Source of the DNA: Tubulanus polymorphus
Lineage: Eukaryota; Animalia; Nemertea
Length of the DNA: 64,000 bases
Direction: 5' to 3'
NCBI RefSeq assembly: GCF_964204645.1
Contig: NC_134026.1
Location: 18,014,150-18,078,149, forward strand
Positions within the stretch are counted from its first letter, which is position 1. Each line of letters opens with the position of its first letter. Positions 25,053 through 62,379 of this stretch are shown here, one piece after another. The notes beneath the pieces were generated by a model that saw only the letters and a list, made by a program, of their open reading frames with translations, was not told the DNA's origin and did not search any database. The translations under genes and the position numbers were made by a program.

Positions 25053-25529
25053 TCCTATTTATTTGGCATTTTTGGTATTTTTCTTCATGGGCCTTTTCAC
25101 GTAAGATAACGACATTTGAATGCTTGTACTATGCTCTCGTGATGTTTTTCAGTGCGGAGAATCAGTTCTGTGTGCTTCGCATCGGTGTTCTTGAAAATAT
25201 TGAATTTTTAAAAATTTGATATTTGAACAACGTGATTTGGGACGTGAATTATTTGAATTTCGACTATGAACTGCAAGAAGCAACTATGATTTGAGAGATG
25301 ACCGTGGGGTTTGGCGGTACAGCAGTTGATATGATGAGCGATCAACTTTTCGCTAGCTTTGGTGATACAATTTAACTCTATATTTAACTCTATGAATGTG
25401 AATCATGCTTATACTTTGTAAGTCTTTAGGTCAATATAAATTTTCTAGTACACAGACGGAAATAATTTCAGTCAATTTGAGTATAAATCTATTCTTGTGA
25501 ACCACACTTATTTTATAAGTCTTAAGTTC

Positions 25530-32300: not shown

Positions 32301-33005
32301 TCGTTGCTCTTCGGGTATATTGGGAAAGTGTCTTGTCCAAATTCCTTCTAGCAATTCTTGATCCATCTCGGTAAAGCCCGTGTAAATGGTATCCGAGTTG
32401 TATCCCTCGGATGATGCCAAAAACGCGGCGCTGTTATCGGTGTCGGTGGTTATCAATTCCTTCATTCCTTTAGCCATTTTGTTAACCGTTTCGGTTTCGA
32501 TTAGGGGTATTTTTCCAGGTTCACCCTTGTGGAACTTTTCGTACTCAGGTGAAACGATGTGCTGACCACCGCTAAGAATTATGGCAGTTGTACATGCCGG
32601 AGCGCCATTGTTTTTAAAACTAATAGTCAACTTGTCACCGCTGCCGTCATAGGTTACACTTCGCGATACTTGAATAGTGGTCGGCATAGAAGGAAAACCC
32701 GGATTCGGCAGCTTGCTATCAACTGTTCCCGTTTGACCGTAAATTTCAACTCCTACCATGTCTATAGGGTCTATACCGGCGAACTTGCTTTTATGTATGG
32801 CCACAATGCTGTTTATAACAGCTGTAACCGACGATTCGCCTGCGTAAATATCGTTCATATCTTGTTTATTTTGGGCAATTGCTTCTTCGTATCTGTTTAC
32901 GAATACTTTCTCTCCGGCATCATCACCACTATTATCAGAACCACCTGTCTTGGTCGCGCTGCTGCCAGTGGTGTTGGGTTTTTGTTGAGAAAAGTATTGA
33001 TCCAT
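26388..33005 (-). CDS. ~2200-codon viral ORF interrupted by one in-frame TGA (1783 aa + 8 codons + 413 aa); candidate ICP8-like ssDNA-binding protein
   Basis: TTT CTC TGA GAA ACA AAA ACC AAC GGA CCT GAC TTG GCC ATG: both track ORFs share one frame. CPDC...CFCYLTHC Zn-like cluster and acidic tail ending EDDLF. The function is weak inference; the coding status is strong. Confidence 0.6.
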
Positions 33006-36185: not shown

Positions 36186-36221
36186 CTGAAAGTAGACAAG
36201 AAAAAAACACCATTATAACAT

Positions 36222-36810
36222 TTAGGGAAGCGGAGGAAATGCGACACGGCGGTATTGTGTCCTGCGGCTGTCGGACAAGAACCGAGACGAGATACACGAT
36301 AGCAGCTGCAAGCCGTGTCAGGATGATGGTGAAATGTGTTGGAGAATCGGTGAAGTGTTGGACAATGTGAAAAATTGTGAAAGTTGGAAATTTCAAAAAA
36401 GTCCCCCAGAAAATCAAAAACAGTGACACTATACTATAGCTGGGGTACCGGGGTTCTGGGGTATTTGGGGTACTTGGGGTACCAAAAAAATAGTACTAAT
36501 TCAAGTTCCAAAAATTCTGTTAAAATGGAACAGTCACCTGTTTTTTTTCTGGTACCCCAAGTACCCCAAATACCCCGGAACCCCGGTACCCCAGCTATAG
36601 TATAGTGTCACTATTTTCGATTTTCTGGGGGACTGACTTTGGTTCACATCCATCACAAACTTTTTTTAATTTTTCCAATTTTTGTAAGTTCTTCATTTTG
36701 TCGACTTGGTCGTTTTTGGTTAACAGACTTGAAACGGCTACAGCATGCTTCGTCTCGGTTCTTGTCCGACAGCCGCGAGACACATTACCGCCGTGTCGCA
36801 TTTCCGCTTC
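36222..36810. repeat. Nested palindromic element, copy 1 (candidate origin or recombination site)
   Basis: Inner ~85-bp inverted arms (AGTCCCCCAGAAAATC...GGGGTACC) around a ~60-bp loop. Outer inverted ~55-bp motif GCGACACGGCGGTA.TGTGTC..GCGGCTGTCGGACAAGAACCGAGACG. Confidence 0.9.
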
Positions 36811-36971
36811 TCTAATCAAGTATGGGTGGACTGAATGGAGGGTTTGATAAAATATTATTGAGCAAGGTAGCATGTTTGATATACACTCACAATTGGTCAC
36901 AGAGTTACGTATGAGAATAAAAACATATAAGGACTACCCTACTACCCATAATTTGTTATCAATACGCTAAG

Positions 36972-37904
36972 TTGCTTCTCGCAAACGCTTATCGGTTTAA
37001 TATGACCATGTCTAAGTTAACAACACGATCGTCAAAATGCAACAAGTTGTCGTTCGTGGTGGCGACAATGTTTGTCTTTATTGCGATCTCTATAGCCAGT
37101 GCAGACTCTCTTGTCGCCGATGGATACAATGCCAGAATTGACAAGCATGGATACAAATTGGTCGACATGACATACAAACAGACTAGTCAAAATAAAGAAA
37201 CATCGCTGATTGCCTCAGACAAGCATACCAGCAGAGAAGATATGCCTTCCGAATTCTTGGTGAAAATCGAAATACCCAAATTACAAACTCAGAACGCCGG
37301 CAATCAAGCTACCGAGACAAAGTTTTTCATGTACTTTATGCGAAACAGTCACGACATTTTCACCCGCTATCAATTCCTTCATGTTATTGGAGCTAGTGCC
37401 ACCGACATTGCGACGAAAAAATGGGGAAGCGTTTCCGCCAACAAACTTTTGTCTGCCGAGAAGACATACTTGAACAAGAACGACCAACAAGAATTTACCA
37501 AGTTATATGGCGAGGTTGCTAAGATTAACTGGGGACACATTGCCGGTGTGTCGAAAATACAAGAAGGATCAGATGACCATTCCATGTTATTGGGAACCGA
37601 CGCGACTGCTAGTCAAACCAATGTGGCAATCGATTTGTACAAAGAACACGGCACCAACAAGATTTTTTCAATTAATTTCCATATGTTCAATACGCTTGAA
37701 ATGAGTACCCGAGCAAAAGAACTCGTCGAGCTTCAACGACTGGAAATGAGAGGTCGTGAAGAAATTGACAGAGATACCACCCACAGGGGTCAGATTGTAA
37801 AGGGTCAACTTGGTTTTGGCGCAATTATTGGAATTGTGTTGGCAGCGGTAACTGTTTTGATTTTGTTAATTTGCCTGATCACTTGGTGTGTGAAACGTCG
37901 TTAA
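36972..37904 (+). CDS. Type I membrane protein in the terminase intron
   Basis: N-terminal hydrophobic signal (FVVATMFVFIAISIASA), C-terminal TM and KRR tail. The true start is probably a downstream ATG (~37002-37008). Confidence 0.8.
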   Translation: MLLANAYRFNMTMSKLTTRSSKCNKLSFVVATMFVFIAISIASADSLVADGYNARIDKHGYKLVDMTYKQTSQNKETSLIASDKHTSREDMPSEFLVKIEIPKLQTQNAGNQATETKFFMYFMRNSHDIFTRYQFLHVIGASATDIATKKWGSVSANKLLSAEKTYLNKNDQQEFTKLYGEVAKINWGHIAGVSKIQEGSDDHSMLLGTDATASQTNVAIDLYKEHGTNKIFSINFHMFNTLEMSTRAKELVELQRLEMRGREEIDRDTTHRGQIVKGQLGFGAIIGIVLAAVTVLILLICLITWCVKRR

Positions 37905-38028
37905 GGACAAAGAGGACTGGTGAGAAAAAAATGTATCTACGATTTTTGTAACCCACAATGTTCATATTTTATATTTCTAAATAATTGTACATTTTGCCAT
38001 TTATATCCTACCCACTACAAAGAACAAC

Positions 38029-39291
38029 ATGTTCTCTCCCGGACATTGTCATCCGTTTGTTGGGTGTATTTACGAATCTCTGGCGTTTGATAGTTTCATA
38101 TCGCAACACCAACTGTTATGTGGACTCATTCACACAATAGACACAGTTCATCGATCAAGCGTATTTATGTGTTATACCCATGGTAGACTTCACACGTGTA
38201 CGATGACGCGAGAAAATTGTCAGCTTACCCAATCAGAGTACGACCGTAACAAATTTATATGCGCCTTTTCAAAACAGACGTGTGGTGCAGAAAATCCAGA
38301 GATTATAAGTATACTAAACGAACAAAGTTTAGAAGACCGAGTATCACCCGATCGAGAAATGAATTGGATGCAAGAGTCTATTTTACACAAAGCTAAACAA
38401 TCGGCCATTGCGGGTAATGGTGGCAACACTAGATCGAAAGATATGATGTGGTTAAACGAATATATGGGTGATAGTTGTGGCGGCGAGGAGACGTGTGGTG
38501 GTGGAATGGCTAGTGGTTCCGATGGCGAGCAAGGTTGTGGTGGCACGTCCAACGGAATGAGTTACTCAAAACGACACTTGCTCGGTTTTGCGACCACTAG
38601 CGATGAACGTAGCGCAATGAAAATGACAGAAGACCGACACACAAAAGTTAGAGTCCGTACTGAAATTGTAAAGTTGGGTACTCCTGTAACATGGCATAAC
38701 AATGTCAGCGATGGAATTTGTCACCTAAATAGTGAGATGTACGCGTATATAGTTCGCAACGTTACCCTTAATACTTATTTGAATGATAATTGTTCTAATT
38801 TACTCGAAATATACAAAGAACATAGTAGAAATCTGGTGTTGTCTCATCACATCAACGGTGTCGATATCTGGGAATTGTCCAAGTATTTTTTCCACATAGC
38901 GGTCGATTACATTTTCTATAATTGTGCATGTCTGTGTCTTGAAGTTGACAAATTGATGCAAAAGTACCCTGAGCTGACCGAAACGATTCACGGTAGAGAC
39001 ATGTTAACTCTGAAAACCAATAGTGGTGGTCCAAGTGATTATTGGAAAGATGTAATTGATCAAGGCAAAAAACGTATTGACTTGATTTTAAAAAAGGGCA
39101 AGAAAAAGTCCGACAATCACAAACACCACGGTAAAATCGAAAAATATCGTCACGCCGTCAGCCATAAGTCTACTGCGTTTTACGGTAATTTTATGGCAAA
39201 GTTGAAGACAGATCTGGCAGCCGGATCATCAAACCCAATATCATCATGTCTTGGCATTTCAAAGATAGCCGACACAGCGGTTACCCATTAA
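38029..39291 (+). CDS. Cys/His Zn-binding protein, UL92/ORF31/VLTF2-like late transcription factor candidate
   Basis: VFMCYTHGRLHTC..RENC...FICAFSK resembles the C-x2/3-x-H-x-C...C...VC pattern of HCMV UL92 and NCLDV VLTF2. Motif-level only. Confidence 0.6.
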   Translation: MFSPGHCHPFVGCIYESLAFDSFISQHQLLCGLIHTIDTVHRSSVFMCYTHGRLHTCTMTRENCQLTQSEYDRNKFICAFSKQTCGAENPEIISILNEQSLEDRVSPDREMNWMQESILHKAKQSAIAGNGGNTRSKDMMWLNEYMGDSCGGEETCGGGMASGSDGEQGCGGTSNGMSYSKRHLLGFATTSDERSAMKMTEDRHTKVRVRTEIVKLGTPVTWHNNVSDGICHLNSEMYAYIVRNVTLNTYLNDNCSNLLEIYKEHSRNLVLSHHINGVDIWELSKYFFHIAVDYIFYNCACLCLEVDKLMQKYPELTETIHGRDMLTLKTNSGGPSDYWKDVIDQGKKRIDLILKKGKKKSDNHKHHGKIEKYRHAVSHKSTAFYGNFMAKLKTDLAAGSSNPISSCLGISKIADTAVTH

Positions 39292-40076
39292 TTACAACTT
39301 CAGATGTAAAATACAATGATTTTAGACGAGCTCTGCGCATGACCCCCTTGGACGGTCTTGGGAAGGACACAAATCCGAAATGGTACAATTCTATGAACGG
39401 TAGAGATCGATCTTTGGTGTTGTCGGTCCACTTAAATTTAAAGAAACGTAGAGAAGCATTTGGTGATAGGAATTCTACGACATCGAGTTACAATCGTGAA
39501 ATGGATCACTTGGCGGCATACGCACACCATGTGGGACCTTTGCCAAAAATGGATGGTGAACCGTTTCCTGATTTACCCAAACTAAAGTACAGAGTCGGCT
39601 ACTACAGAGAGTGGAACAACAATACAGAAGTGATCAACTATGAAGTGAGTACAAGTGATTTTATGCCGATTCTAGACTACATGACTTTTGAAACCGACGT
39701 ACCAGACAACGATGAACAGGAGAAAAATAAATCGCGACGCAAAAAGAGAAATAAAGACGATATGAACTCTGTCAATGTAAATTTTAAGTATAAAAAACAA
39801 TTGTTCACCGTTTTGGACTTGTATCCTAGCTTGGATCTTGTACCGACCCCTAGATCATCTTTACCCAATGCCCGACTACCACCACCCCAGTCTGATACAA
39901 CCGGTCGCAAGGTATCCTTTATAGAAATAGTCGATACGGATACAACCAGTCAACACGTTATAAATCTACGAGTGACCAAGTACTCGAATCCGTTCGATGC
40001 AAGTGAAAAACACTTTGTAAAGTTACTACCTACTGAAAAACTTTACAAGAAACGGCTTCGACAGACATGGAATTAG
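39246..40076 (+). CDS. Hypothetical viral protein (276 aa)
   Basis: Long ORF overlapping both neighbours; no recognised motif. Confidence 0.7.
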   Translation: MSWHFKDSRHSGYPLITTSDVKYNDFRRALRMTPLDGLGKDTNPKWYNSMNGRDRSLVLSVHLNLKKRREAFGDRNSTTSSYNREMDHLAAYAHHVGPLPKMDGEPFPDLPKLKYRVGYYREWNNNTEVINYEVSTSDFMPILDYMTFETDVPDNDEQEKNKSRRKKRNKDDMNSVNVNFKYKKQLFTVLDLYPSLDLVPTPRSSLPNARLPPPQSDTTGRKVSFIEIVDTDTTSQHVINLRVTKYSNPFDASEKHFVKLLPTEKLYKKRLRQTWN

Positions 40077-41920
40077 AAGAGGTGTTGGCAAATAAATTAA
40101 GTGAAAAAATGGATAAAATGTCTACTCCGATAACTGGATCCATTCAGACTAGACTGAGAAAGAGGAAAAAACAAGCAAAACACCGCGGTACTGAAAGTAG
40201 CAGCGAGGAAGAAGGCGAAGACGATGAAGTGATTAAGCCGGCCGAGGATTTTGTGATGGATTTACTCAATCAAATCGGTACAGGGAACAATGCAGACAAT
40301 CAAATATCGGTAGAAGAAGAAATGCGAAGTAGTAGACGTCCCAAGCGATCACAAAGAAAAAAACAAAAAGTTGTTCGTTTTGAATTGGACCAGGTCACTC
40401 CGTTGTCATCAGAACCCATGGAAGTTGATGAAGAGGAGTCTGCGGACGTTGTTATACCCAACCCAACAAACGATGCATGTCCCTTACCCATTTACACACC
40501 ACCTAATAAGACTGGAGCAATTGTTGAAGACATCGACGTACGTTTCTCTCTGTTGTGGGTGGACGAACCACATTTTAAGGCGGTCTACAACAGTTTTGGT
40601 AGTTGTACACATAGAACAGCGTGGCCTATAGACAATATAGCAACAGCAATACAACTCATGAAGGATATGGCTATAACGGAATTTATAAGTGTTGTGAGTG
40701 AAGCTCGACCTTACTGTCAAACAGAAAAACACGTGGAGAAGGTTCTAAATAATTTGAAACGTTTTGATAAACAGTCAGCAAACTCTACTGGTAATTGTAA
40801 CACAGCAGATGAATTACACACGTTTGCCAGTAGCGGAAGTGTGTGTCTACCCATATACTCATTGGACGATGCTGCGATGACCACTGATAGTCACATTACG
40901 ATAATCGACAAAGATTTGAGCAAAGTTAAACTTGTCAGAGGCATCCTATTGGAAAAACTCTTACAAAGTCCGTTGACATCACCCACAGATGTGCTGGACG
41001 AAACAAGTAGGTTGGATGAGAGCGGTCAATTTCAATACACAATGAGAAAACAGTTGTTCTCCGTATGCAATTCGACAACCGTGAGTGGGGGTGCGGATAT
41101 TACAATCGGTGCTGTGTTGTCACCTTCTGAAAATCCATTTCTGAACATTAACCTAGCGCCTTGTATCCAAGAAAACGAAAGAGCAACGAAATTGATCAGC
41201 GACATTCGAAATATTCTTACTTGGGACAAATTGCCACGAAATTGGTTTCAATATAGAATGTTCAAAAAGAAATCGGCTACACTCATCTACACCACTAATA
41301 AGTGGGGTGATCAAAGCAGTAAAGTCATAGGTGATTCTACAACTTCGGATAAATACCAACATTATTCAATGTATCAACTTCAACAAAGTGGTTGTGGCGT
41401 GGATCGTTTCGATTCGGTTACAGAATACATGCCTAGCAACCTCAAAGGTAGGAAGATATCTGTTGGTACCGACGAACAACAAGTTCTATCAACCGTAGAC
41501 ATTACCCGTGCAGGAGTGCAGAGTAGACTTGCAAGTTTAAACACTGGTCATTACTTGTCTAATTTCAACACGTTTGGAATCTTTAATCTATCAGTGGATA
41601 CACACAAGACCATGTATCAAAGGCTAAAGTCCTACGTAAAACCTTTGACTATAACCGAACATTGTTGTATGGCATACGATTCAAGTTCAGATACTTATGT
41701 TATAACTTCCCCTCTATTACCCACCACTATAACCAATCATGATAAAACTTGTGTGTTGTATATGGAAGGACGCAAGTCCCGTTTAGCCACAGTCGGCACT
41801 CATGGATCAGTAGTCAGTAGCTCTATGGTCGAGGACAACAACTCGTTGAATATATTATGTGAAAACTATACGTGTTACCATGAACTTGGTCAAATGTCAA
41901 AGAACTCTGTGATTTTGTAA
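40067..41920 (+). CDS. Hypothetical viral protein (617 aa) with basic/acidic NLS-like N-terminus
   Basis: Long ORF; last of a 3'-coterminal cluster ending at AATAAA sites ~41973-41988. Confidence 0.78.
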   Translation: MELEEVLANKLSEKMDKMSTPITGSIQTRLRKRKKQAKHRGTESSSEEEGEDDEVIKPAEDFVMDLLNQIGTGNNADNQISVEEEMRSSRRPKRSQRKKQKVVRFELDQVTPLSSEPMEVDEEESADVVIPNPTNDACPLPIYTPPNKTGAIVEDIDVRFSLLWVDEPHFKAVYNSFGSCTHRTAWPIDNIATAIQLMKDMAITEFISVVSEARPYCQTEKHVEKVLNNLKRFDKQSANSTGNCNTADELHTFASSGSVCLPIYSLDDAAMTTDSHITIIDKDLSKVKLVRGILLEKLLQSPLTSPTDVLDETSRLDESGQFQYTMRKQLFSVCNSTTVSGGADITIGAVLSPSENPFLNINLAPCIQENERATKLISDIRNILTWDKLPRNWFQYRMFKKKSATLIYTTNKWGDQSSKVIGDSTTSDKYQHYSMYQLQQSGCGVDRFDSVTEYMPSNLKGRKISVGTDEQQVLSTVDITRAGVQSRLASLNTGHYLSNFNTFGIFNLSVDTHKTMYQRLKSYVKPLTITEHCCMAYDSSSDTYVITSPLLPTTITNHDKTCVLYMEGRKSRLATVGTHGSVVSSSMVEDNNSLNILCENYTCYHELGQMSKNSVIL

Positions 41921-42019
41921 ATGTAAATATGCTGCTTTAGAATTTGATTTGTGGATCTATGGTAATGGTATCAATAAATAAAAATAAAGTGACTTTTAGT
42001 AAAAAAATATTGCACTTAC

Positions 42020-43432
42020 TTCTTTTTCTCGGATGATCAGTGTTCTGAAGGAATTTGATGAGAAGGGTTGCTTATCCAAACAGCGACCATCCAGGGTATA
42101 ACGTTTGTAACGAACGTAGAGTATCGAGTATTGTGAATCTTTTTGAATGTATCCTTGCAGATAGTAGTCTTTTTCGTCTATATCCGACTCATCTTTACTG
42201 TGTCGAATTTTGACGGTGGTACACGTGTGGTTATTGGGATTGGGAATGTTACCACCAGCAGTATTACCGATCACAATTTCACGCATTTTATTTTTTTGAA
42301 CCTGTTTCTTGGTCTCCATGAAGTTTTTCTTTTCCTTTTCGTTGAATTCCTTCAACATTTCGGGTACGACGTCTTGCATGGTTTTGAACGCATTTGTAGT
42401 CAATCGACCACTAGCCGTTCCGTAAATGTTCTTGTGACCGGCATAAGGAAACCAAACAATTTCCATACAACTGTTGGCTATGTGCGACACAGTTTTACCC
42501 AAACGTCTTTGCACTTCTAAAATCATGACAGTGTATTGTTTAAGTATCATGTACACTTTCAAACATTCATCATACGTCAAATAGTCCATGTTGAGTTTGC
42601 GTTTCAGCAAAAGGAACAAAAGTTGGGCATATTGCTCCATGTGACTACGTTTTAGATTGTGAGCAAGAGTTTCGAATTTGTTAAGACATTGAAAACGGGC
42701 CAAGTCAAAACAGTGCATTTTTGCATAGTCAGTGCCTGGTGCTGTTTTCTTGTCTTGATGAATGGTAACTGTGATATTAGTGTTGGGCTTTGTTGAATTG
42801 ACATTATCATCGCCACCACCAACATTATCTACTAAATTCCACCACATGAATTTAGAATCATAGTTGTCTTTGGGTAATTTTTTGTTTGTACCTTCATCGT
42901 AGTCGTCCTCCTCACAGTCATCTTCGTCATCAGAGTCCAATGGACCATTACAACCATTTTCACTGTTTGATAAAATCAAAGTTTTCATCCACTTATAAGA
43001 GAGAAACTCTTCGCTCCAGCGAAGGGTGTTAAATACTCTATGTTGGTCGGTAGCGTTTAAGTTCATTCTCGAGGCTATGCATATTGTTTTGACAGTGTCT
43101 GGTTGAATTGTGTTGTCTCGAGCAATTTTTTTCAACACGAACGCTAAACTATTGTTCAACGTTTCAAATGCACTGTTGTTACGATAGTTTTGCAGATCGT
43201 GTGAAGAGGTTGTTGCGGCTTTTAAAACAGTTTCTGGGTAAATGAGTCTTCTTTTAGGAGACTGTAATAAATCGGCCGTTTCGTTAACATACTGCAATGT
43301 TTTGCCGCAATCGAAATGTGAGAGTTTAGTGTCTCTAACTATTCCTATGCCTGGGTAAGTTACGTATTTGGGGAAACAAAGTTGTTCACCGTTTCTCGTT
43401 CTTTTGAACGCTATTATACCCTCCCGAGTCAT
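42020..43432 (-). CDS. TRM3: Terminase ATPase subunit, exon 1
   Basis: Walker A VMILEVQRRLGKT (cf. VFLVPRRHGKT). Donor GAA|GTAAGT after 471 codons, phase 0, joins in frame to 36185. Confidence 0.92.
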
Positions 43433-43533
43433 GGTGACTCTGTGGAAAATCTACCGAAGCTAAAGTAAAAAGTCAAGACATAATATATATTTTTCAAAAG
43501 CTTACATTTTTATTTTAGATCAAATTATTCTAG

Positions 43534-44382
43534 TTAATAATACAATATGCTACTATTACATGTGATATCATCATTCCACGATAAATGTTTACTACGTGCT
43601 ACAGGTATATAAGTTTCAAAGTCCGTTTGTCTACAAATGTTTTCTATATATTCCATATTTTCAGCATACATTGGTTCTACACAAGGCGACTCCTCGGTAT
43701 CCAAACAAGCGATATTCTCAAAGTCCAATTTCTTTGGAGACACCATCTTCACGTTTTTGCCTAACACTACATTAATGTTTTTAGTTGGCGAAATATTCAC
43801 AATGGGAAAGTCTTTTTTGTCTTCTATTTTAGCAGTCTTGGGCGGTGTAACGTCGGGTATCAAAAAAAGATAAACTTGTTTTTCTGGTGTTGAATTCGTG
43901 TTGATCTGGGTAACAGTAGTGGAGATTTGCTGATTTGAAAATTGGATTTCAGGCGCAATGGTACACGTTGGTGTCTTTGCTGGAGATGGAGTTTTACACA
44001 TTATTGGCTTCAACAGAGACAAAGTTTTGCTAATTTTGTTAGGTGAAGGAGATTTACATTTCCTAGGCGGTGATTTTTCCACGCTCACTTCTTTTACTTT
44101 TTTCGTTGAAGTATACTTGTAATCAGGATACTTTAACTTGTGTTTTGCTTTCTCGATGTCAGTTGCTTCGATATAAAATTCCTTTTCTTCTGCGGGTAAC
44201 AAATTCCAAATTTCAGCAATTAGTGCACTGGCTTTTGTCTGGTGTTGATTTTTGTAGTAATCTGCCATATATGATCGAAAAATCATAAACGGGTTTCTTG
44301 GCCTTGGAATGTGATTTACCTTGATTAGAAGTGTTCTGTAATGTCCGCAGAGAAAATGTGACTGGAATTGTACCAAACGCAT
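43534..44382 (-). CDS. SOX/TCF/MATA-type HMG-box protein
   Basis: HIPRPRNPFMIFR...SALIAEIWNLLPAEEKEFYIEA...KHKLKYPDYKY, followed by an SP/TP-rich tail. Confidence 0.9.
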   Translation of the reverse strand: MRLVQFQSHFLCGHYRTLLIKVNHIPRPRNPFMIFRSYMADYYKNQHQTKASALIAEIWNLLPAEEKEFYIEATDIEKAKHKLKYPDYKYTSTKKVKEVSVEKSPPRKCKSPSPNKISKTLSLLKPIMCKTPSPAKTPTCTIAPEIQFSNQQISTTVTQINTNSTPEKQVYLFLIPDVTPPKTAKIEDKKDFPIVNISPTKNINVVLGKNVKMVSPKKLDFENIACLDTEESPCVEPMYAENMEYIENICRQTDFETYIPVARSKHLSWNDDITCNSSILYY

Positions 44383-44472
44383 TGTACCCTTACAACATGT
44401 CCGATTTTATTTTTTTCGTAACTTTATACATTTCCTATCTTGTTCCATTTTGGCTCATTTTTCTCACCTTCT

Positions 44473-48150: not shown

Positions 48151-48284
48151 CGTGGTTGTGAGTTATAAGTCACTAATATTTCGCTTGAAAATAATTCACG
48201 ACTCGGTGTAGGTAATTTCTAATAGTAGATATAAGCAGTTATCAAATATAAAAAAATACACTGGTAAAGTCATTCGCGTGTCAA

Positions 48285-49901: not shown

Positions 49902-49920
49902 CTTGACGGCTTTCTGTGGG

Positions 49921-52900: not shown

Positions 52901-54570
52901 AGTACCAGAAACGCGTCTCTATCGATTCGTTTTGTTTCTGTGTTAAAAATGGCACTCATGAGATTTGTGTTTGTAAGCAAGGGCATTTCACCAGTATTGG
53001 GTAGCATCGACTTTGGTAAAATGTAGTGATAAAGTGCAATGGCTTGGTCTTGGTTTATCATGGCAGCTTCACCTTGTAGTTGAAAGTGATGAGCTTGTAT
53101 CAACAAATTTACAATCGATTGATACTTGTTACCTCCTATGCTATCTCTTAGCGTTAATCCAATCCAGTATATTTGTTTATGGGTAAGGGTAGTGGTGCTT
53201 GTTGCACTTTCTTTTTGAATTTTATCATCTACGATTACGAACAAATCCTTGGGTATGTAGCCCAAACTAGAATGAGCACTATCTACCGTTATGTAGTCAC
53301 CTAGTTCTACTACGTCGCTATTTTCTATGGGATTTACGACTGTTCCATTTGTCCGTTCCAGAGCAAATAGCGATTGGGTAGGTACGTCTCCGAGTATGTC
53401 ACGTACACATTGTAAATAAACGTGTTCATACACGTCTCTTGCGCGAACAAAAACTTTTCCCCCAGCACCTATCTTCGAGTATATATCTAACAATGCCGTA
53501 CACAGAGGAACAACAAAGTTTCGAGAATCCATTACAGTAGCTAGAAACTCCAAACTTTTGAGTAGATTTCCTCTGAATTTATCTGGTATCGTGTCGGCTC
53601 CTTGACCCATGTTAGTGTTTCGTATTTTCTTGTTGATCTTGTCTAGCAAATATTGTAGACCCATCATATAGATACCTTGGTTTGCATATTCTTGTTGAAC
53701 AGACGGCGCTGCGGTTGATTCTTTTATGTTCCAGTATGGACTTTTTACAAGTCTCAAATTGAAATCTACTTTAGTGTCTAGATAAACTTTCAAGTCGTAT
53801 TTTAATTTTCCTAGCGGTAGCAAACTGAATGTGTAGTCCATAGCTGCATCCATGTTGTACAAGAAATTTGACAAGTCCGTTGCTGATTTTGTCTCTTGAA
53901 TTGCTCTGTTCATCATCAACTCCATGGTTCCGACTCTACCCATCTCTGACTCTGTTTCCATGAGCGGACCATTCAGAGAGACCAGAGCCGGACATTCTTT
54001 ACCTTCTTGGGTGTTCATGGCTTGCAAAGTCAAGCACATGACTAATTTGTCTTTTTGAATGGATTTTACGATACAGTCCTTGAGTCTATTGTCGGGTATT
54101 ATGTTTGCGTATTGATAAGTCAAAAGTGCGTCTCTATACGCCTGATCCGCTACGGGTATTGTGTCTGTCAACGCTTCTACCAAAGTTTGTGTAACTTTGA
54201 ATATAGAAGACTTGAAAAATAACATACAGGTTGTATTATCTATGACGTTGGCATTTTGAAAAATCTTCACCCACGATTCTGGTACAGATTGGACCTCCAT
54301 CAACCGACTCAACATTGTTAATGTGAGTGTGATACTCTGAGAATGTAGCCTTGCCGCATTTATATCGACGACATTAGGATTGGGTAGAGTAACGTGTACA
54401 AATCGACACAAACTACCATCTGTTGAAGTTGCCGCTGGATTCACTTGTAAGAAGTCATTTTCTGAATACTTAAACCACAATGAAGTCTCCACATCATCTA
54501 CTGACTCAAAGACGAAATCTTTAAAGAACTCTGTTATCAAATGATCCATTTTGTATTTATTTACATTCAC
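49921..54570 (-). CDS. Large hypothetical viral protein (1549 aa)
   Basis: Intact intronless ORF overlapping the upstream ORF by 14 nt. No catalytic motif recognised; size fits a capsid or tegument protein. Confidence 0.75.
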   Translation of the reverse strand: MNVNKYKMDHLITEFFKDFVFESVDDVETSLWFKYSENDFLQVNPAATSTDGSLCRFVHVTLPNPNVVDINAARLHSQSITLTLTMLSRLMEVQSVPESWVKIFQNANVIDNTTCMLFFKSSIFKVTQTLVEALTDTIPVADQAYRDALLTYQYANIIPDNRLKDCIVKSIQKDKLVMCLTLQAMNTQEGKECPALVSLNGPLMETESEMGRVGTMELMMNRAIQETKSATDLSNFLYNMDAAMDYTFSLLPLGKLKYDLKVYLDTKVDFNLRLVKSPYWNIKESTAAPSVQQEYANQGIYMMGLQYLLDKINKKIRNTNMGQGADTIPDKFRGNLLKSLEFLATVMDSRNFVVPLCTALLDIYSKIGAGGKVFVRARDVYEHVYLQCVRDILGDVPTQSLFALERTNGTVVNPIENSDVVELGDYITVDSAHSSLGYIPKDLFVIVDDKIQKESATSTTTLTHKQIYWIGLTLRDSIGGNKYQSIVNLLIQAHHFQLQGEAAMINQDQAIALYHYILPKSMLPNTGEMPLLTNTNLMSAIFNTETKRIDRDAFLVLLFDSMIRHKFTWERTLAALMKTWQAQMTKVENYNTRSKLIAANHGTYIQSIYDSLATAVDMKPNTAGWTVDEMMWFLQKVLSADLVTVSANTATIDMSELLSYATTIATRVLYDCSDEANWLFPVVQHSTELTAECRLLPRALDFSYDIRPVFWLIKKDESVDVGENGGEKSYKYEVVNTELWRGDARSGQIPHSLHEAFLNNVKTATVIKDIMHWLNNIDKRYTKMQFHKVFSWGIGLTDVFGTSGQYNAEIIRKQIKVVASSNKNVEYFQSIQDIIDIMCETYAELRKTGGSRNQLVRRIELFRYMANAMASQNDNRSCPSSGHGITLVDILWTTVFSNEHKESNVCRYKEEGYVLRDKKNSGKWTLIGCVNKNLSFSKDETNLFQKLCKLFWDSKATTWTNIQVEEEGKYTKFAKDLYSAWLEELLCYCESSSTGIVESQIAQDRNPELSYFLKLSDCTLNKYIPEYTGPDMLTTLATTTHQNEFKRVKAIIDAIAKATMENDKMKEFASQAIDNVWLLVEVIMKNICLNDNTDTYIPNEIPIVLRASSNTTNPLDIVPMNSRGINLIVNCLGYLLQRRSRDQVTKSLGVDRASIATRQQQQTDLDAPQATTQFLITENQLINLMVVANSYVNIDLVQKIGISNKEHMFALHKCGLLNRNLHMVFENIQDEKKGGSRAVLDLIVVENDTRKNEHLSAWQFWDYLFAMSFLTLVNTRAVICFYTFGVDSESGNTQLYPNSIFDFSRLDASSKLSTIVKELIMLDAVGGLDIADKITKYIQLTTMLLIECQWMDDDTATAILSLIAKISTPSTALGQEQYPDKVDRVSFMDCLASVLSDSSGGSETMQRKLACFVQQILDTPIRCSSRGMLTTSTGATVPTTAKKTGSTSKKIDLVVLGQAMNNTGRSKAAGHLGYGSTIGKSLTSAKSEDSIIHTPTVCRDESFIVLRDTPDAQRHSFNLNTCSYFERDTAHELNNLFADVLRQRNLIIR

Positions 54571-55987
54571 TGGGGACGATACAAGTCCCGTTGTATAACA
54601 AAATTATATCTAGAGCTACCAACAACCACATTACAAAACAGACTATACTAAATACGATAAATAGTCTCATGAAATATTCACAAAATAGTGAACAACAACC
54701 ACCTCGCTTTTGGGTACAAAACGTGAAAATTGTTTCTTTTTGTGAGTTCTTCGTTCCCTCCATTATGTCCATTGTTTCCAGTAGGCGAACAGTGTTTTCC
54801 TGATCCAAGTAGCCACGTACCTTTTTCAAAACCTTTTCCCTGCGTTTTGTGTACTTGAGATAATTAAAATTGAATGCTTTTATAATTTCTACACAAAACA
54901 CAAAAGATGTGCACAGTGTCATCAACATGGCAGTAAAAATTATTCGGCATTCTCTTAAAGGGGTAAGGGTATTAGCTGCTATTTTATCCGCTGCAGTATT
55001 GTCACCAGAAGGGTTTGATATAAATCGTACCAACTGTAATGTTCCGTCTAGTCCAACATTATCTACATGTTCGACGCCTGTTATCATGGACAAGAGAAAC
55101 GAAAATGTTACCATAATGTGTGTTAAACTCCCTAACATCAACACAAACATACATGGGTACAGCATTAACAGGACCAAACGCTGTTTTCTTTTATAAATGT
55201 TGCCACTGGTTTCTGTATTCATTTGATTTTGTCTAATTGATGTATTGTACATTTCCATGTTGTTAGTTCTACTGCCACCACTTCGTTTTCTTAGTGTATT
55301 TTGTTGTGGGTACCCGTCATCTCCTTCTTCCATTGTCGATAACAAACCAGTATCCTCGTTATATTCACCCTCCCATCCAGTTATGTTATTTTTATACCTT
55401 TTTCTAGAAGCATAATAGCTCTTCAGTCGGTAGACCCGTTCTCGAACAGCTATTACACATGTAACAGCGTATAGAACAATCAAGGCTATAAAAGTTGTGG
55501 AAATCCACACAAGTGGAGAGTGATGTACATCTTCCAACTTGTAGGGTAATGCTTTTCTCTCGTGTAGTTTTATTTTAGCGTTAATACTGTCGCCGTCGCT
55601 TGGATTCATCACTTTTTCCCATTGTGATGCAAGTGCAAGCATTTTGCAATCTCTACAACAACGGACAGAGCCACTGCATACCGTGTAAAATTCCTTTGTA
55701 CAAATTTTAAAGAGGGTAACGTTAGAATCCGGAGTGTGGGGTATAAATTTGCATCCCGATAAAGGTGTGCAGAGTCTTCCTCTGCGCTTCATCAGTCCAT
55801 GTTGTCTAAATTGTTCTCTCGAGGCTACATTGGCGTCCAAGTCGGAATAGAATACAGTGTCCCAAAAGAAGAACACAAATCCAAAAAATGTAACAAACGC
55901 CAATATGTTCAATAAGAGTAACAATTTATCCAAAACGATGTTAGATGTTGCCATATTGGAAATAGTGAAATATTCTAACTCTAACAA
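54557..55987 (-). CDS. Multi-pass membrane protein (about 5 TM) with Cys-rich first loop
   Basis: Hydrophobic segments plus LCTPLSGC...CSGSVRCCRDC loop. Confidence 0.75.
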   Translation of the reverse strand: MLELEYFTISNMATSNIVLDKLLLLLNILAFVTFFGFVFFFWDTVFYSDLDANVASREQFRQHGLMKRRGRLCTPLSGCKFIPHTPDSNVTLFKICTKEFYTVCSGSVRCCRDCKMLALASQWEKVMNPSDGDSINAKIKLHERKALPYKLEDVHHSPLVWISTTFIALIVLYAVTCVIAVRERVYRLKSYYASRKRYKNNITGWEGEYNEDTGLLSTMEEGDDGYPQQNTLRKRSGGSRTNNMEMYNTSIRQNQMNTETSGNIYKRKQRLVLLMLYPCMFVLMLGSLTHIMVTFSFLLSMITGVEHVDNVGLDGTLQLVRFISNPSGDNTAADKIAANTLTPLRECRIIFTAMLMTLCTSFVFCVEIIKAFNFNYLKYTKRREKVLKKVRGYLDQENTVRLLETMDIMEGTKNSQKETIFTFCTQKRGGCCSLFCEYFMRLFIVFSIVCFVMWLLVALDIILLYNGTCIVPSECK

Positions 55988-56241
55988 TAGCCCCTAATAC
56001 AAAATTAAAAGCAAAACCGAACTGCAGCCAAAGTGGTGACCCTATTGGATATGAAGCATTGACCGTATGTATGTTCCCTTCCCAGGTTTCCATTTCAGTG
56101 CATGGGACCTACGCTATTCCATTTCAGTGCATGGGACCTACGCTAGATGGCGTGGGGGTATGCAGCCCTAGCCCCCTATTTTCCACTCAGCCAGCAGCAG
56201 CAATAGTCTAACATCGCTTTGAGTCAAAAGTAATATCAATC

Positions 56242-56331
56242 GCCAGGATGGCCGAGCGGTTAAGGCGTTGGAATTAAGATCCAATGGACAACACGATTAT
56301 ATCCGCGTTGGTTCGATCCCCACTCCTGGTA
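56242..56331 (+). tRNA. trnL-TAA: tRNA-Leu(TAA)-like gene, non-canonical
   Basis: GCCAGGATGGCCGAGCGGTTAAGGCG TTGGA ATTAAGA TCCAA...GGTTCGATCCCCACTCCTGGTA. A and B boxes intact, T-run downstream. A at position 32, enlarged variable arm, one T-stem mismatch. Confidence 0.85.
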
Positions 56332-56357
56332 TTGGCCTTTTGCCTTCCTAACCCTAC

Positions 56358-57085
56358 TGTACAATTCTTCATCATTAAAACCAGGAAGTACAAGATTTGT
56401 TATCTCAACATTAGAACCAGGAAGTAACGATTTCCCATATGTTTTAGGAGTGATATACTAGCCTCTAACCATAAGGGTTTGCACTTTCCTAATGCATTAG
56501 TATAGGGATTAGTCATGAAATCCGCCATTTTACCTGATGGTAGCGGAACGATTTCAGGCAAAACGTTCCGCTACCATCAGGTCCACTATTTCACTGTTTA
56601 AAGTGGATTTAGAGGTTAGTTGAACATTACGTTCTTGGTGTAGGACGATATTTGCGTAAAATATAACCATCAATGTACTGTTTGAAGGTTGTAATTATGT
56701 GTTTTATTTGGAAAAAAATGAACAATATTTTAGTCAGGGAAGAAAACATTGTCCACTGCCCTGACTTGTAAAAGTTTTATCCAAGACAGAACGCATTTTG
56801 GTCAGAAAACCGAACCATTGTCTACTATCCGGACTTGTACAATTCTTCATCATTAAAACCAGGAAGTACAAGATTTGTTATCTCAACATTAGAACCAGGA
56901 AGTAACGATTTCCCATATGTTTTAGGAGTGATATACTAGCCTCTAACCATAAGGGTTTGCACTTTCCTAATGCATTAGTATAGGGATTAGTCATGAAATC
57001 CGCCATTTTACCTGATGGTAGCGGAACGATTTCAGGCAAAACGTTCCGCTACCATCAGGTCCACTATTTCACTGTTTAAAGTGGA
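56358..57085. promoter_or_regulatory. Two 250-bp direct repeats, each with ETS-like and YY1-like motifs and a perfect 19-bp hairpin
   Basis: 56358-56607 equals 56836-57085. Each has CCAGGAAGTA twice, CCGCCATTTT, and a hairpin (56532-56582; 57010-57060). TATAAATA at ~57148. Confidence 0.75.
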
Positions 57086-57224
57086 CTCAACTAGTTTGTG
57101 GTTAGAGTTAGGAAAAATCGTATCTGGTGAGAAAAGTTCAGACACACATATAAATAATACGGCGGACTTGTCCGGTGAAATGTCATATTAGTACAAGCCA
57201 CAGTACTGCTGAACGCATGGTTGT

Positions 57225-60197
57225 GTGAAAATTGTATTTAGTACAACAGCACCTATTCCCGATGTTACACACCCTCTGCATGGTCTCATGATGAAAATTT
57301 TTGATTCGAAAAACGAGTCTTGTAAACTCAATGAAGCTGTTGAAAAAAACATTCAAAAAATCATTGCTATTGATGTTACATATTCCAATGGCAATGGAAA
57401 AAAGTCTACCAGTAAAAGATTTAGTTCTTCCATATTCGAAAGGCCTGAATCCAATTCACAAATGAGAGACAAAATACTGGTACAAGCTCTCATGAGTTCA
57501 GATGAACACGTTTATGAAGTAATAGATGACACGAAGCCAAAGCGTCTTTATTTAGACATCGAGTGGACAACAGATCGAAGCGTCAATGACGACTCGCGCT
57601 CACGAGAACAAAATGCTCGAGATTTACTATCAAACATGGTGAATGAATTTGAAAAGTACTTAATCAAATTCAAAACCGACGACACCATGTCCGCAGCAGA
57701 ATTTACCCAGCGTCTCGTACTAACCAGTAGTCGTGTGAGGAAAACGAAATACAAGCATTCGTTTCATGTTATATACCCAAATATTATATTTAACGAAATA
57801 ACCGATATGAAACGATGTGTTCTAGAATTCAAAAATTCTAACACAAAATATGGTTTTATGATAGACAAGGACGTCTACAACAAAAACCAACAATTCCGTG
57901 CTGTTAACCAAAGTAAAATCTGCAGCTCTACAGTTCTATCCATTTTGCCCGAGTTATCTAGTCCTGAAGCACAACCTAGTCGGTCATTAATCCAACCATA
58001 CTCCGAATTGAAGTCAACGACAAACAGCATGACTTTACCAAAACATTCTACTACAAAGAGAAAAAGAAAATCTTCGTCAGCATCATTAGCAGCAAATGAA
58101 CCAAGCACGACTTGTATCAAACGCTCCAAAAAATGCCAACACTCAGCGGACGAAAATCAACACCCAAAAGACGCAGTTCCCGACAGGCCTTTAAAACTAC
58201 CCAATTCATCTGTCGTTGTCCGTACAGACAAAGATGTCATTGATTTGATTGATGGAAAAGATTTACGAGCAAGTGATTTCACCAAACACTATTTACCCAT
58301 CCTTACATCAATTGTCTGTAGGAATCTTACAGGTAACACCAACATTACACCAAACGACATCATGACATGGTGTAACTACACAGACGACAATCTATCAAAA
58401 GCCCAAAAAGACATAGATTATGTCACCAAAAACGCCGAGAAACAACTGGATGATGATTTCAAGTATCTAATACAACACATCAAAGACCTAAAAGACATCA
58501 CTGTATACGATTTGAGAACAAAACATATCCAGCCTAAGATAAAACATGTGAAATTTGAAGAAGTGAATTTATCGAAACGCATCCACACCAAAACACTGTG
58601 TCTACAAGTGACCACCGATGATGGAACCGAGGCCCAAAAACAATGCGTTGATAATATTGTCAAGTTCGTTCACGACTACAAAATAGAAAACACTTGTTTG
58701 TTAAACAACAATGTTTTACTATTATCAAACGAAAAGAAAAAGATGGATTTTAAAAACTTAGCGAAAACACTCACCAAGTACAACATATCGGTGTCAGGTC
58801 GAAATTTCGATACCCCCTTTCCAAAAAGTATACTCGAACAAAGTATCGACCTAAGCGCTAACATTGACAGTCAACTACTGTTAAATGTAGGCGAAATGTA
58901 CGAGATTGACCAAATAAAGTCGATTATAGAGTATACCGCGAAATGTGACAAACAAAAGCACAAAAACAAAGAATTGCTAACAAAAAGCATACATCAATTG
59001 GTCAACGAGGGCACAATCAAACTTACCGAAATATCCTATGTTCAAAGTGCCAGATCTCAATACAACAAACTAGTTTCTGAATCCGAGCAAAAACCTGATC
59101 TATAGGAAACTTACGTCATGAAATTCCGACGAGGTAAACAAGACGAAGACGGTATATACACACCCCTAGAACCATGGAAAGAATCAATAGAAATACCCAT
59201 AATACCATACCGAATTGGTGTAAAACGACGCAGCTTGTACATTTGGTCGTATGGGCCCAATTGGGGAAAAACCTTTAATGCCGATACATTTTGTAAACTA
59301 TACAACGCGCAGTGCGTCAACGATACCAATAATTGGACCAATATTCGCCGTAACGTTCAATTCCTGTTCTTTGACGAGTTTAGTGAAAAGCGAAAATTGG
59401 AGTTCAGCAGTCTCGCTGCTCTAGCTGGTGGAAACCCCGAACACTTTTCTGGAAATTGTAAAAGTTATGGCGACTCGTTTCAAACAAACAATGAAAAACT
59501 CCAAGTAATAATTTTCTCAAACGTTTCGCCGTTTAAGCTGTACGGTGATTGGGACAAGAAACTTCAGAAGCGATTGATTAGTACCGACAACGCCAACATC
59601 CTGAAAGAAAGATTTGCCATGTACTGTTTGGACGGCGATGTTTGGCTAGATGAAATTCAAAATACTAAACGAGACAAACTTACTCTTTCACAGTTGTATT
59701 TCTGTACAATTACAGACTTACGAGGAATGTTACTAAAACTACTACCAGGTGTGGTTTGTAATACTCTTAGAGACAAATTATTTATGATGACACAATATCT
59801 TGTAAACGTATTAAGTTGTTGGGATTTTTCATACGCCTGTGCAGATCAAATACAGTCTGTGATCAAACGTTTTACAAAGTATCTCTTGCATCCTGAAATC
59901 GCAAGAGTAATGTCAGCAATTATCGATTCCGATTATTTCAACTCCGCACGACGCAGCATCAAAGTTCCTGGCAAAGATGTTTCTTCAACTTTTATACCTC
60001 TTGTTGAAGTTTCCGAAGTGTTGGAATATGCAAGGTGTAGGATTGAAATATGTAATGAAATATTACAAGAAGGATACGATCCTCTTATGGACACCGACAA
60101 TAATTCAGACATTGAAAGCGACGTTGAGTGTGAGGACGATTTGTTCCCAAGTTGTTACCAAAGTTGCAAATGTAGCCTTATTAACGTTCAAATGTAA
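57225..60197 (+). CDS. AEP (PrimPol-like) primase fused to SF3 helicase, interrupted by one in-frame TAG
   Basis: AEP motifs YEVI..RLYLDIE, SFHVI, IDKDVYNKNQQFR. SF3 motifs GPNWGKT (A), LFFDEF (B), VIIFSN (C). CTA TAG GAA ACT TAC GTC ATG links the two track ORFs in frame. Confidence 0.85.
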
Positions 60198-60329
60198 CAT
60201 ATCCGGTTAGAGTTTGTTTCGTGTTATTGATATGAGAAGTTAGATAGAAAATATTGTTAGAAAATATTCTAACCATCAATAGTAATAAGACAAAAAAGTT
60301 AGTTTTGGCGCCCACATGCATGTTAAAAG

Positions 60330-60739
60330 ATGAAAATCAACATAGTGTTATTTGGTTGTTTTTTATTGTCCAATATTGCTAATGCTGAGTTCAATTATGA
60401 TTCGAATGACGATGATGCCGTTGGTGATTACATCTGCTCACTTGATGATGAAGTCTATATAAATGGAAAATGTTACGATAAAACTACAGTCTATGTTGGT
60501 GGTTTTTTGGTCTCTTAGCTGTATTAGCAGTAATTAGTGATTGTTTTTGTGGATTTTGTTGCTGTTGCTGTGCGCCATGTAAGAATAATAGAAATCTAGG
60601 AATTATCCATACTCCTACAACTGTTATAACCATGCCAAACACAGTGCCTGGTGGTTCTGTAGCTCCTCCACCCTATCCTGCGAATGGTGGTGGATTTGAA
60701 AACATGATGTTTGGGGTGAAGCAACCTTCTGATGTGTGA
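60330..60739 (+). CDS. Shisa/WBP1-like small membrane protein with PPxY motif, 1-nt frameshift in a T run
   Basis: Signal peptide and short Cys ectodomain. After a shift at GGTTTTTTGG (60501-60510) it reads GLLAVLAVISDCFCGFCCCCCAPC...VAPPPYP...DV-stop. Confidence 0.7.
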
Positions 60740-61261
60740 AATGTAAAGAAGCACAACCCTACTCAGACCATACTCCATTCGTCAATACAACTCCGCCACA
60801 ACAAAACAACTTTACCCATGTGTACATCATCATCCGCCGTTTACCCAGACTCAATCGTCTTATTGCAGGAGGTGCCAGAAGGAAGTATAAAACATTCCAA
60901 GTCATTTGGTGCTTCAAGAATTTGCGTGTATGTTTCCATCGACGCCGCTACCAGACTCTATAAGTAATACGATGACGGGCACATGCGTGTGAGCGATTGT
61001 ATGTGGGATCTTGCGAGCTAAAGCGCTGTTGTGAAACGCTAGTGTACCGGCCTTGTATAAAGAACAATAAAAACACATGTCCCCGATGCTCTACGAAAGT
61101 AGATGAGATAAAGTTACAAGAGGAGAAATAAGGTTACGAATGGAGAAATAGCGGGTTACGAGAGGAGAAATAAGCCAAGTTCGAACTTTTTCCAAGAGGT
61201 TAGAGAACACATACTTATCTCACTCAATCACTCAGTCCAAAAAGAGTTCGTTCCGTAATCG

Positions 61262-62230
61262 AACAACCAACCAACCAACCACTCTACCCTGTATAGGGGA
61301 AGCGGATGATGGGCGACACGGCGGTATTGTGTCCCGCGGTTGTCGGACAAGAACCGAGACTCGACATACGATGCAGCTGCAAGCACACGCAGGCACATCT
61401 CTGAGCTGAACACAAGTCGAGTGTGTGTATCGATCGTAAGCCACCAATTTATAATTAATGTCTAAAATGCACAAGTCCAACCAACCAACCAACCAACCAA
61501 CCAACCAACCAACCAACCAACCAACCAACCCCAAACCCTGTATAGGGAAGCGGGCGATGGGCGACACGGCGGTAATGTGTCCCGCGGCTGTCGAACAAGA
61601 ACCGAGACGAAGCATGCTGTGGCCGCTGCAAGCACATGCAGTAGCAAGAGATTTGTGCCAAGACATGGAGCTAAGGCAATGATGCAGCAGCAGCACAGTG
61701 AGCCGTATGAGTCTGACATGGCATAAAGTCAAGAATAAACATCATATATTATGGTGAATGGAAAATGAAAAATTTTCGAACTTGGCCAAATTTTCAAAAT
61801 TTTCAACATTTTCCAAAAAGTCCCCCAGAAAATCAAAAACAGTGACACTATACTATAGCTGGGGTACCGGGGTTCTGGGGTATCTGGGGTACTTGGGGTA
61901 CCAGAAATTAGTACTAATTTAAGTTCCAAAAATTCTGTTAAAATGGAACAGTCACCTGTTTTTTCTGGTACCCCAAGTACCCCAGATACCCCAGAACCCC
62001 GGTACCCCAGCTATAGTATAGTGTCACTGTTTTTGATTTTCTGGGGGACTTTTTTGAAATTTCCAACTTCACAATTTTTCACTTTGTCCAACACTTCACC
62101 GATTCTCCGACACATTTCACCATCATCCTGACACGGCTTGCAGCTGCTATCGTGTATCTCGTCTCGGTTCTTGTCCGACAGCCGCAGGACACAATACCGC
62201 CGTGTCGCTATCTCCGCGCTTCCCTATAAC
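61262..62230. repeat. Nested palindromic element, copy 2, with an extra motif copy and (AACC)n
   Basis: Same inner palindrome at ~61815-62055. The 55-bp motif occurs at ~61312, ~61561 and inverted at ~62160-62208. (AACC)n at 61479-61530. Confidence 0.9.
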
Positions 62231-62379
62231 ATGGTTAAGGGTGGTCTAGATACACAGGCACACGCAGTGGTTCTCTATGTTCGGCGGAATGACTTGGCTT
62301 ATTTCTCCTCTCGTAATACAGTGGAAATTCAATCGGATATATAACTGCTACTACATGTTATGAACGCTTATAAATATAA

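Follow-up and report, generated by a model that had tools for sequence, protein, structure and literature searches.

Flip-flop hairpins lie at the covalently closed genome ends of parvoviruses, poxviruses and telomere-resolvase replicons, and two inverted arrays of a short unit around an A+T-rich centre form the layout of known viral replication origins. Here we describe two nested palindromes, elements A and B, in a 64,000-nucleotide stretch of DNA (the window) from the nemertean Tubulanus polymorphus (assembly GCF_964204645.1, contig NC_134026.1, positions 18,014,150 to 18,078,149; all coordinates below count from the first letter of the window). Like the flip-flop hairpin ends, A and B have an asymmetric loop that occurs in both orientations between arms of identical sequence; unlike them, they are internal, and long contigs from two sequencing runs (X1 and X2, below) reach them from both sides. 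With moderate confidence, and largely by comparison with described systems, we read them as copies of a multi-copy nested palindrome, candidate replication origins that may double as recombination junctions.

The closest of these systems, here and below as given in the available portions of the papers cited, is the palindrome between ORF49 and ORF50 of OsHV-1 (ostreid herpesvirus 1) and acute viral necrosis virus (AVNV), a stem-loop that is suspected in OsHV-1 to be the replication origin and that is likewise long, internal, herpes-type, from the closest virus family and hard to assemble (PMC9836095, PMC3623871). The available OsHV-1 text describes one stem-loop, whereas the present virus has two copies as a minimum and probably no fewer than three. 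These are nested within outer arms, have spacers that can be exchanged and an asymmetric loop that occurs in both orientations, and one of them lies within the intron of a terminase gene. In HSV-1 (herpes simplex virus 1), oriL is both a hairpin and a hot spot for rearrangements and junctions, and HSV defective genomes are built around origins (PMC10734421). KSHV (Kaposi's sarcoma-associated herpesvirus) has two copies of the lytic origin, oriLyt, with AT palindromes and G-quadruplexes; the duplicated, near-identical oriLyt-L and oriLyt-R, together with the origins of Epstein-Barr virus (EBV), resemble A and B in their AT-rich palindromic core and G-quadruplex-forming repeats, but span 1.7 kb, have bound proteins and are of proven function, whereas A and B are candidates in which the whole unit is a hairpin with G tracts in both arms (PMC10714766). 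Baculovirus homologous regions (hrs) are palindromic repeats at dispersed positions, linked with both replication and recombination and found at inversion ends (PMC4901303), and A and B resemble them in occurring as several dispersed palindromic copies (two in the window, with further flanks in runs X1, X2, X3 and X5). However, an hr consists of short imperfect palindromes in an array (38 palindromes in 7 hrs; PMC4901303) where A and B are one large nested hairpin each, and baculoviruses belong to a different virus class, whereas the window encodes a herpes-type terminase; the elements are not a baculovirus hr. In the literature available to us, which did not extend to subscription journals and was seen in part, multi-copy nested hairpins, loop inversion and an intron-borne palindrome are unreported for an invertebrate herpesvirus, and in the available text of PMC11092209 inverted repeats come up in a single passage and palindromes in none; the terms looked up in PMC11565193 had no match there.

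Two nested palindromes with mutually inverted arms

Both elements share one layout, spanning 600–700 bp per copy, in which outer arm (~90 bp), spacer and core arm (89–98 bp) lead to a loop of 54–57 nt and recur in mirrored order beyond it (Table 1). Their outer portions are inverted relative to each other, as the original prediction for this stretch had stated: the left half of A (36241–36488) is identical to the reverse complement of 61962–62208 at 243 of 248 columns, and 36728–36799 matches that of 61561–61632 at 93% identity over 72 nt. Each of the four core arms carries five GGGG tracts with a period of ~9 bp, so that the predicted tract number holds in all of them. The folding of whole element A (z = -28.3) was reached by 0 of 100 shuffles and that of whole element B (z = -25.7) by 0 of 20. 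The core of B is a perfect 93-bp palindrome around a 54-nt loop, the longest within 25–64 kb, where the runner-up measures 27 bp. A 26-nt probe from the outer arm found five matches within the window and none in 100 shuffles, one of them a fifth outer arm (61295–61385) that had been missed earlier, as had a 25-bp inverted repeat around B and the fact that the spacers are not mirror images.

Specifically, the right outer arm of A is nearer to the left outer arm of B (79/93) than to the right one (75/95), with marker letters in common, whereas the 93-nt spacer beside it (36635–36727) is unlike the 176-nt left spacer of B (61634–61809), with 76 of 187 columns identical; because of this difference A and B are not full inverted repeats of each other in the window. 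Three spacers show a weak core-proximal likeness in the same orientation (p 0.016–0.02, uncorrected, 20 tests), which we judged too weak to claim common descent. Element A ends exactly at its outer arms and is bordered by TA left and right, as B is by TA or TATA. No target-site duplication longer than TA/TATA was found at either element, and the TA belongs to the self-complementary ends and is therefore no independent duplication. In Rfam only a tRNA scored above threshold, miRNA-family matches on the B hairpin falling far under their cut-offs, and a bacterial promoter scan, a type not apt for a herpes-type virus, stayed at chance level.

Table 1. Coordinates of the elements, the terminase gene and adjoining features in the window
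Feature	Position	Strand	Remarks
Terminase exon 2	34137..36185	-	DNA_pack_C; outside the A–B segment
Predicted terminase intron, 5834 nt	36186..42019	-	GT..AG, phase 0; TTTCAG acceptor at 36186
Element A, nested palindrome in terminase intron	36223..36814	.	3' splice site 37 nt away
A left outer arm, 'R' type	36223..36313	+	matches B right outer arm at 88/92
A left spacer, 'R' type	36314..36390	+	matches B right spacer (reverse complement) at 83/86, counted up to 36399
A left core arm	36391..36488	+	five GGGG tracts, ~9-bp period
A loop, asymmetric, 57 nt	36489..36545	+	72% A+T; loop B oriented alike
A right core arm	36546..36634	-	85/89 to A left core arm
A right spacer, 93 nt	36635..36727	.	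single occurrence in window; B-left-type spacer instead in X1, X2, X6
A right outer arm, 'L' type	36728..36814	-	matches B left outer arm at 79/93
Predicted terminase exon 1, 471 codons	42020..43432	-	ends at GTAAGT donor; within the A–B segment (ORF 41996-43432)
Accessory 5-kb insert next to B	56068..61135	+	skipped by X1 bridging contig, 96 other letters between
tRNA-Leu(TAA) in insert	56242-56331		
Two identical 250-bp direct repeats in insert	56358-56607, 56836-57085		19-bp perfect hairpin in each
AEP-like primase ORF in insert	57288-59105		Atlas score 0.93
Helicase-like ORF in insert	59118-60197		one unnamed homologue
20-bp tandem repeat	61108..61180	+	other flanks branch off here in X1, X2, X3, X5
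25-bp perfect inverted repeat around B	61156-61180 / 62292-62316 (-)		outermost pair
Fifth outer-arm copy	61295..61385	+	248 bp upstream of B left arm
(CCAA)13.5 microsatellite	61477..61530	+	between both left outer arms
Element B, nested palindrome	61543..62226	.	inverted relative to A, loop excepted
B left outer arm, 'L' type	61543..61633	+	
B left spacer, 'L' type, 176 nt	61634..61809	+	joined to A right flank in X1, X2, X6; to B-type flank in X5
B left core arm	61810..61907	+	89/89 to B right core arm
B loop, 54 nt	61908..61961	+	72% A+T
B right core arm	61962..62059	-	
B right spacer + outer arm, 'R' type	62060..62226	-	

Loop orientation and homogenised arms

In an inverted copy of a unit built as L-core-loop-core-R, the loop is reversed too. 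The loops of A and B instead read alike, as predicted, matching at 52 of 57 columns in direct orientation and at 34 of 63 when one is reversed, and the loop is asymmetric, since loop A matches its own reverse complement at just 36 of 64 columns. The arms are homogeneous within each copy: those of B are identical (89/89), and one site is T in both A arms and C in both B arms. Crossover between A and B as inverted repeats would, on its own, invert 25 kb and leave the loops still facing each other. Loops that point alike could arise by an arm-to-arm crossover or template switch within one copy, or by excision and re-entry via the opposite arm, and geometry would require one of these, because an A–B crossover cannot give same-way loops. 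The identical B arms, and the T of A and the C of B each present in both arms, support an event within one copy, so that a loop was probably flipped by arm-to-arm template switching or crossover. The earlier proposal that one loop had been inverted between its arms follows from the geometry, with the arm homogenisation fitting template switching or crossover in particular. Spacer inversion with arm homogenisation is the described pattern for template switching between inverted repeats (PMC8604942), and A and B share both; that system involves spacers of 2–5 bp in yeast genes, whereas the loop here has 54–57 nt and the arms 90–100 bp.

A terminase gene with a predicted intron and its viral context

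From ~26 kb on, the window carries dense long open reading frames (ORFs). ORF 34137–36155 matches Pfam DNA_pack_C, of the herpes terminase family (E 2.9e-8, above the cut-off), and the best PDB match of terminase exon 2 is HSV UL15, a weak one (E 0.033). We predict from the splice signals that this exon is joined across a 5834-nt intron to an upstream exon 1, whose VQRRLGKT, although it has no database match, we take to be a Walker-A-like motif; two relatives, P0001 and P0002, have a matching motif near the protein start, in the same place as in the window terminase. The intron contains element A and four ORFs on the opposite (+) strand (37002–41920). The UL15 terminase gene of HSV is spliced and holds opposite-strand genes within its intron.

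A profile of exon 2 and two relatives retrieved 58 proteins at E<=0.001. Many of these are of exon-2 length and some lie on contigs of 165–208 kb. Twenty of the 58 were looked up, which gave four named clusters: Malaco herpesvirus 4 ORF71 (E 2e-45), the abalone herpesvirus terminase, a Branchiostoma floridae protein and one hypothetical protein. There are relatives at ~47% terminase identity, and in a tree built by a quick method from 29 of 60 proteins, long ones trimmed to their last 560 residues, the window terminase groups with three unnamed proteins and Malaco herpesvirus 4 (Shimodaira-Hasegawa-like approximate likelihood-ratio support 96). With most of its members unnamed, this set of 58 proteins suggests that the diversity of invertebrate-type herpesviruses is large and as yet undescribed. 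By its terminase, then, the virus in which the elements lie is of herpes type and related to malacoherpesviruses. Neither a capsid protein nor a family B DNA polymerase was identified among the window ORFs, and we therefore call the virus malacoherpesvirus-related and assign it to no family. The 1542-aa capsid candidate (49921–54549) has no Pfam match and no homologue, and contig searches for related terminase loci confirmed none (33 and 76 pattern matches). PDB sequence searches with exon 1 and with the ORF at 44.5–48.1 kb returned nothing significant, and a single-sequence fold of the latter was uninformative (mean predicted local distance difference score, pLDDT, 31).

Exchange of parts and copy number in other samples

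Eleven sequencing runs from eight studies, with no RNA run listed among them, carry part of element A, of which X1, X2, X3, X5 and X6 were compared as contigs, X4 and X7–X11 being left out; contig depth is not equal to copy number, and gaps in cover prove nothing. X1 and X2 cover viral genes on both sides of the elements, and X2 is nearly the same genome as the window, with 0 of 2771 letters differing left of A, 3 of 2773 from 36728 onward and 0 of 4110 at 52–56 kb. The right flank of A is nevertheless joined to the reverse complement of the B left spacer in X1 (302 letters, 5 differences) and in X2 (211 letters, 2 differences), and X6 has the same join in a single contig. This alternative right half of A thus occurs in three of four runs (X1, X2 and X6, from three studies, among X1, X2, X5 and X6), whereas X5 joins the B left spacer to a B-type flank as in the window. 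Since the side pieces differ on near-identical flanks, the elements exchange parts. In X5 the element is covered and the viral genes almost not, and cover of X3 is patchy; we did not count these gaps as evidence.

Summed depths leave nothing for the 93-nt spacer of the window in X1, X2 or X5. This bears on the possibility that the elements are real and that the loop flip and the odd right half of A are assembly errors within a hairpin, a structure that disturbs sequencing (PMC9836095). The A-type loop and the 93-nt spacer are uncovered in X1, X2, X5 and X6, even though X2 is otherwise near-identical, as such errors would predict. Missing contig cover proves nothing, though, and the 93-nt spacer is no garbled version of the expected one (76/187 columns), sits between a core arm and an outer arm that are both clean, and belongs to an element in which a letter common to both arms differs from B. 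We regard assembly error as a doubtful explanation.

Each virus probably has at least three copies. In X1 the R side continues in three ways, two long contigs of 19.8 and 7.1 kb lead into the left side, and the R-side piece is 2.9 times as deep as the four long contigs of this run; X2, X3 and X5 have extra flanks too. Several different flanks in X1, X2, X3 and X5 would also be expected of a MITE-like (miniature inverted-repeat transposable element) or foldback-like non-autonomous mobile element, living in the virus and perhaps in the host and inserting at harmless sites such as an intron. The elements have terminal inverted repeats (the 90-bp outer arms) and no coding capacity, A ends sharply at its outer arms beside TA, B is flanked by TA or TATA, and X5 links B-type pieces at high identity to flanks unlike those of the window. 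We think such an element unlikely, because TA/TATA is part of the symmetric ends and no longer duplication was found, 14-mers of the elements have 0 matches in the host-like 1–25600 or elsewhere in the window, the depth of X1 amounts to about three copies (11 contigs) and not to a large family, B-type copies also have shared flanks past their arms, ~430 nt on the left and 67 nt on the right, and A lies at an identical place in X1, X2 and the window. As to the alternative first raised, of a virus-restricted element or a multicopy host MITE, the evidence is on the viral side, with 0 matches in the host-like 1–25.6 kb (the host being represented by these 25.6 kb) and no target-site duplication past TA/TATA, and a multicopy host MITE is not supported.

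In X2, contig depth is 332 on the loop, 664 on the core, 16 on the terminase region and 79 and 65 on the sides of B, the core piece being 2.0 times as deep as the loop and the loop ~21 times as deep as the terminase region; X1 has no such peak. As a hint only, this peak fits defective genomes that carry the element as origin. It would fit as well with elements that are cleavage, packaging or module boundaries, where cutting or recombination would turn the genome into sub-genomic circles or defective genomes that carry one element each and occur at unequal levels. The depth of X2 is stepwise near the elements (16, 16, 79, 65) with several alternative joins, and the G runs beside T runs presumably resemble herpes pac motifs. 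Against boundaries speak the even depth of the four long contigs of X1 (32.8–39.6), the severing of the terminase gene that a cut at A would entail, and the inability of contigs to show ends, and we consider this reading quite unlikely; it overlaps that of an origin, because defective genomes need both signals.

Exact element probes had 0 matches in viral_contigs, and the sole probe match in metagenome_contigs (L001) was dropped as a chance 22-nt stretch within a GC-rich bacterial gene. Small shares occur in one coral and one sediment metagenome, which we do not use as evidence of host or habitat. Contigs of X3 join 62069, at the edge of the B right core arm, to 58690 and skip 143 nt of the B left spacer (one contig each), and may represent rearranged molecules.

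A candidate replication origin and recombination junction

By analogy, the elements would act like a herpes palindromic origin with hr-like dispersal. Each is a long palindrome with an A+T-rich centre outside coding exons, as in the herpesvirus type of origin, and the loops have 72% A+T against 59% across 26.4–56 kb. An initiator protein would bind both inverted 9-bp arrays, the loop would melt or the core extrude as a cruciform, and forks would begin there. Stalling or breakage at the hairpin could then drive template switching or crossover between the arms of one copy, homogenising the arms and inverting the loop, as well as exchange between copies, swapping the spacers.

Several observations weigh against this origin-and-junction reading. 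Neither an origin-binding protein nor a DNA polymerase was recognised in a Pfam scan of 18 ORFs, most of which had no match, and cumulative skew tracks gene strand with no clear switch at A or B. The exact ends of A at its outer arms, with TA flanks, are small-transposon-like. The joining contig of X6 has a depth of just 2.3, the A-type loop letters and the A right spacer are without cover in X1, X2, X5 and X6, and in X1 the loop piece has 1.8 times and the displayed core pieces ~2 times the unique depth, less than expected from three copies. The library type of X2 is not on record, and its peak is one of contig depth, which is no measure of copy number. Finally, loop orientation is known from the window assembly alone: contigs of all runs, being short-read contigs, break in the core arms, which leaves the orientation of loop and segment unphased in every run.

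Of the three roles put forward originally, that of a replication origin is the best match. The internal position of A, within the terminase intron, makes a packaging or terminal signal a poorer match, and so does, for an invertible segment of neutral effect, the separation of both terminase exons that inversion would bring. The same separation could be functional, a flip of 36.5–61.9 kb parting the exons and turning packaging off, for instance in a latent or integrated state. Inverted repeats are present at both ends of this segment, exon 1 (42020–43432) lies within it and exon 2 (34137–36185) beyond it, the bounding inverted homology is longer in X1 and X2, with their B-left-type spacer right of A, than in the window, and herpesviruses isomerise via inverted repeats (PMC12096621, PMC11878034). 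Yet the isomers known from the available text of these papers invert whole unique regions, no isomer was observed here (contigs could not have shown one), and no recombinase was recognised by Pfam among 18 ORFs, a weak negative with most ORFs unmatched. Moreover, the same-way loops would be left unexplained, and the inverted form might be a mere dead-end by-product. We judge a functional invertible segment to be distinctly unlikely. In its boldest form, which we offer as a speculation of low probability, A–B inversion would be a recombinational switch in which one orientation aligns the terminase exons for packaging and the other is a non-packaging, chromosome-resident or latent state, the hairpin being a shared origin and crossover site that divides the genome into modules, and the primase-bearing insert described below a satellite docked beside the origin.

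Accessory insert and neighbouring sequences

The tRNA, direct repeats, primase (of the archaeo-eukaryotic primase, AEP, type) and helicase-like ORF left of B form an accessory insert, because the bridging contig of X1 skips 56068–61135. The insert also has a 29-bp tandem pair. Motifs of the helicase-like ORF (59118–60197) are presumed ones; it has no Pfam or PDB match, and a contig search gave 4 pattern matches and no confirmed related locus. Contig depth in X2 is 79 on the insert and 16 on the neighbouring segment. The insert may be a satellite or a mobile replicon belonging to the virus, and the 250-bp repeats with their 19-bp hairpins may be its own origin. A second stretch bypassed by the X1 bridging contig (62381–63125) is rich in A+T and has pieces that X1 links to other flanks; it is possibly a host-derived repeat inside the virus.

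Among the viral ORFs, 43534–44382 encodes an HMG box (Pfam E 1.1e-8), and this putative DNA-bending protein could bind cruciforms. The large ORFs without a Pfam match at 44473–55954 and 27654–33005 include two multi-membrane proteins, the 1542-aa capsid candidate, a 1783-aa protein and a 1225-aa ORF that is likely an envelope glycoprotein.

The first 25 kb of the window resemble animal host DNA, with satellites, a KDZ (Kyakuja-Dileera-Zisupton) transposase and a telomere-like array. The transposase piece lies at 22975–23559 (E 2.5e-11), and several short frames at 19.4–22.1 kb resemble exons of a partner gene (region 19400–23660). A degenerate TTAGGG-like array with a 15-bp period (24692–25056) lies at the border between host-like and viral sequence, its G-rich strand toward the virus, and could be a telomere-type integration mark or the end of the neighbouring KDZ element; the left contig of X2, if colinear, would end near 25.7 kb. 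A 203-bp satellite in about five copies (14780–15864) has an internal palindrome of 15-bp telomere-like units in each, and inverted repeats of 129 bp, 99% alike and 892 nt apart (2296–3445), are probably an ordinary MITE with no relation to A and B.

Implications

The element pair is real, viral and recombinogenic. How replication starts in invertebrate herpesviruses is unsettled, the OsHV-1 origin being merely suspected, and this virus supplies a structured candidate origin in several copies, with inverted 9-bp G-rich arrays around an A+T-rich loop, and with natural variants. Because one copy sits between the terminase exons, A–B inversion would directly affect packaging; that it splits these exons argues against neutral isomers, so that inversion of 36.5–61.9 kb would act as a switch or else lead nowhere. 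A genome plan of dispersed hairpins whose parts are swapped among near-identical genomes is new relative to the malacoherpesvirus literature consulted, as far as its available text goes.

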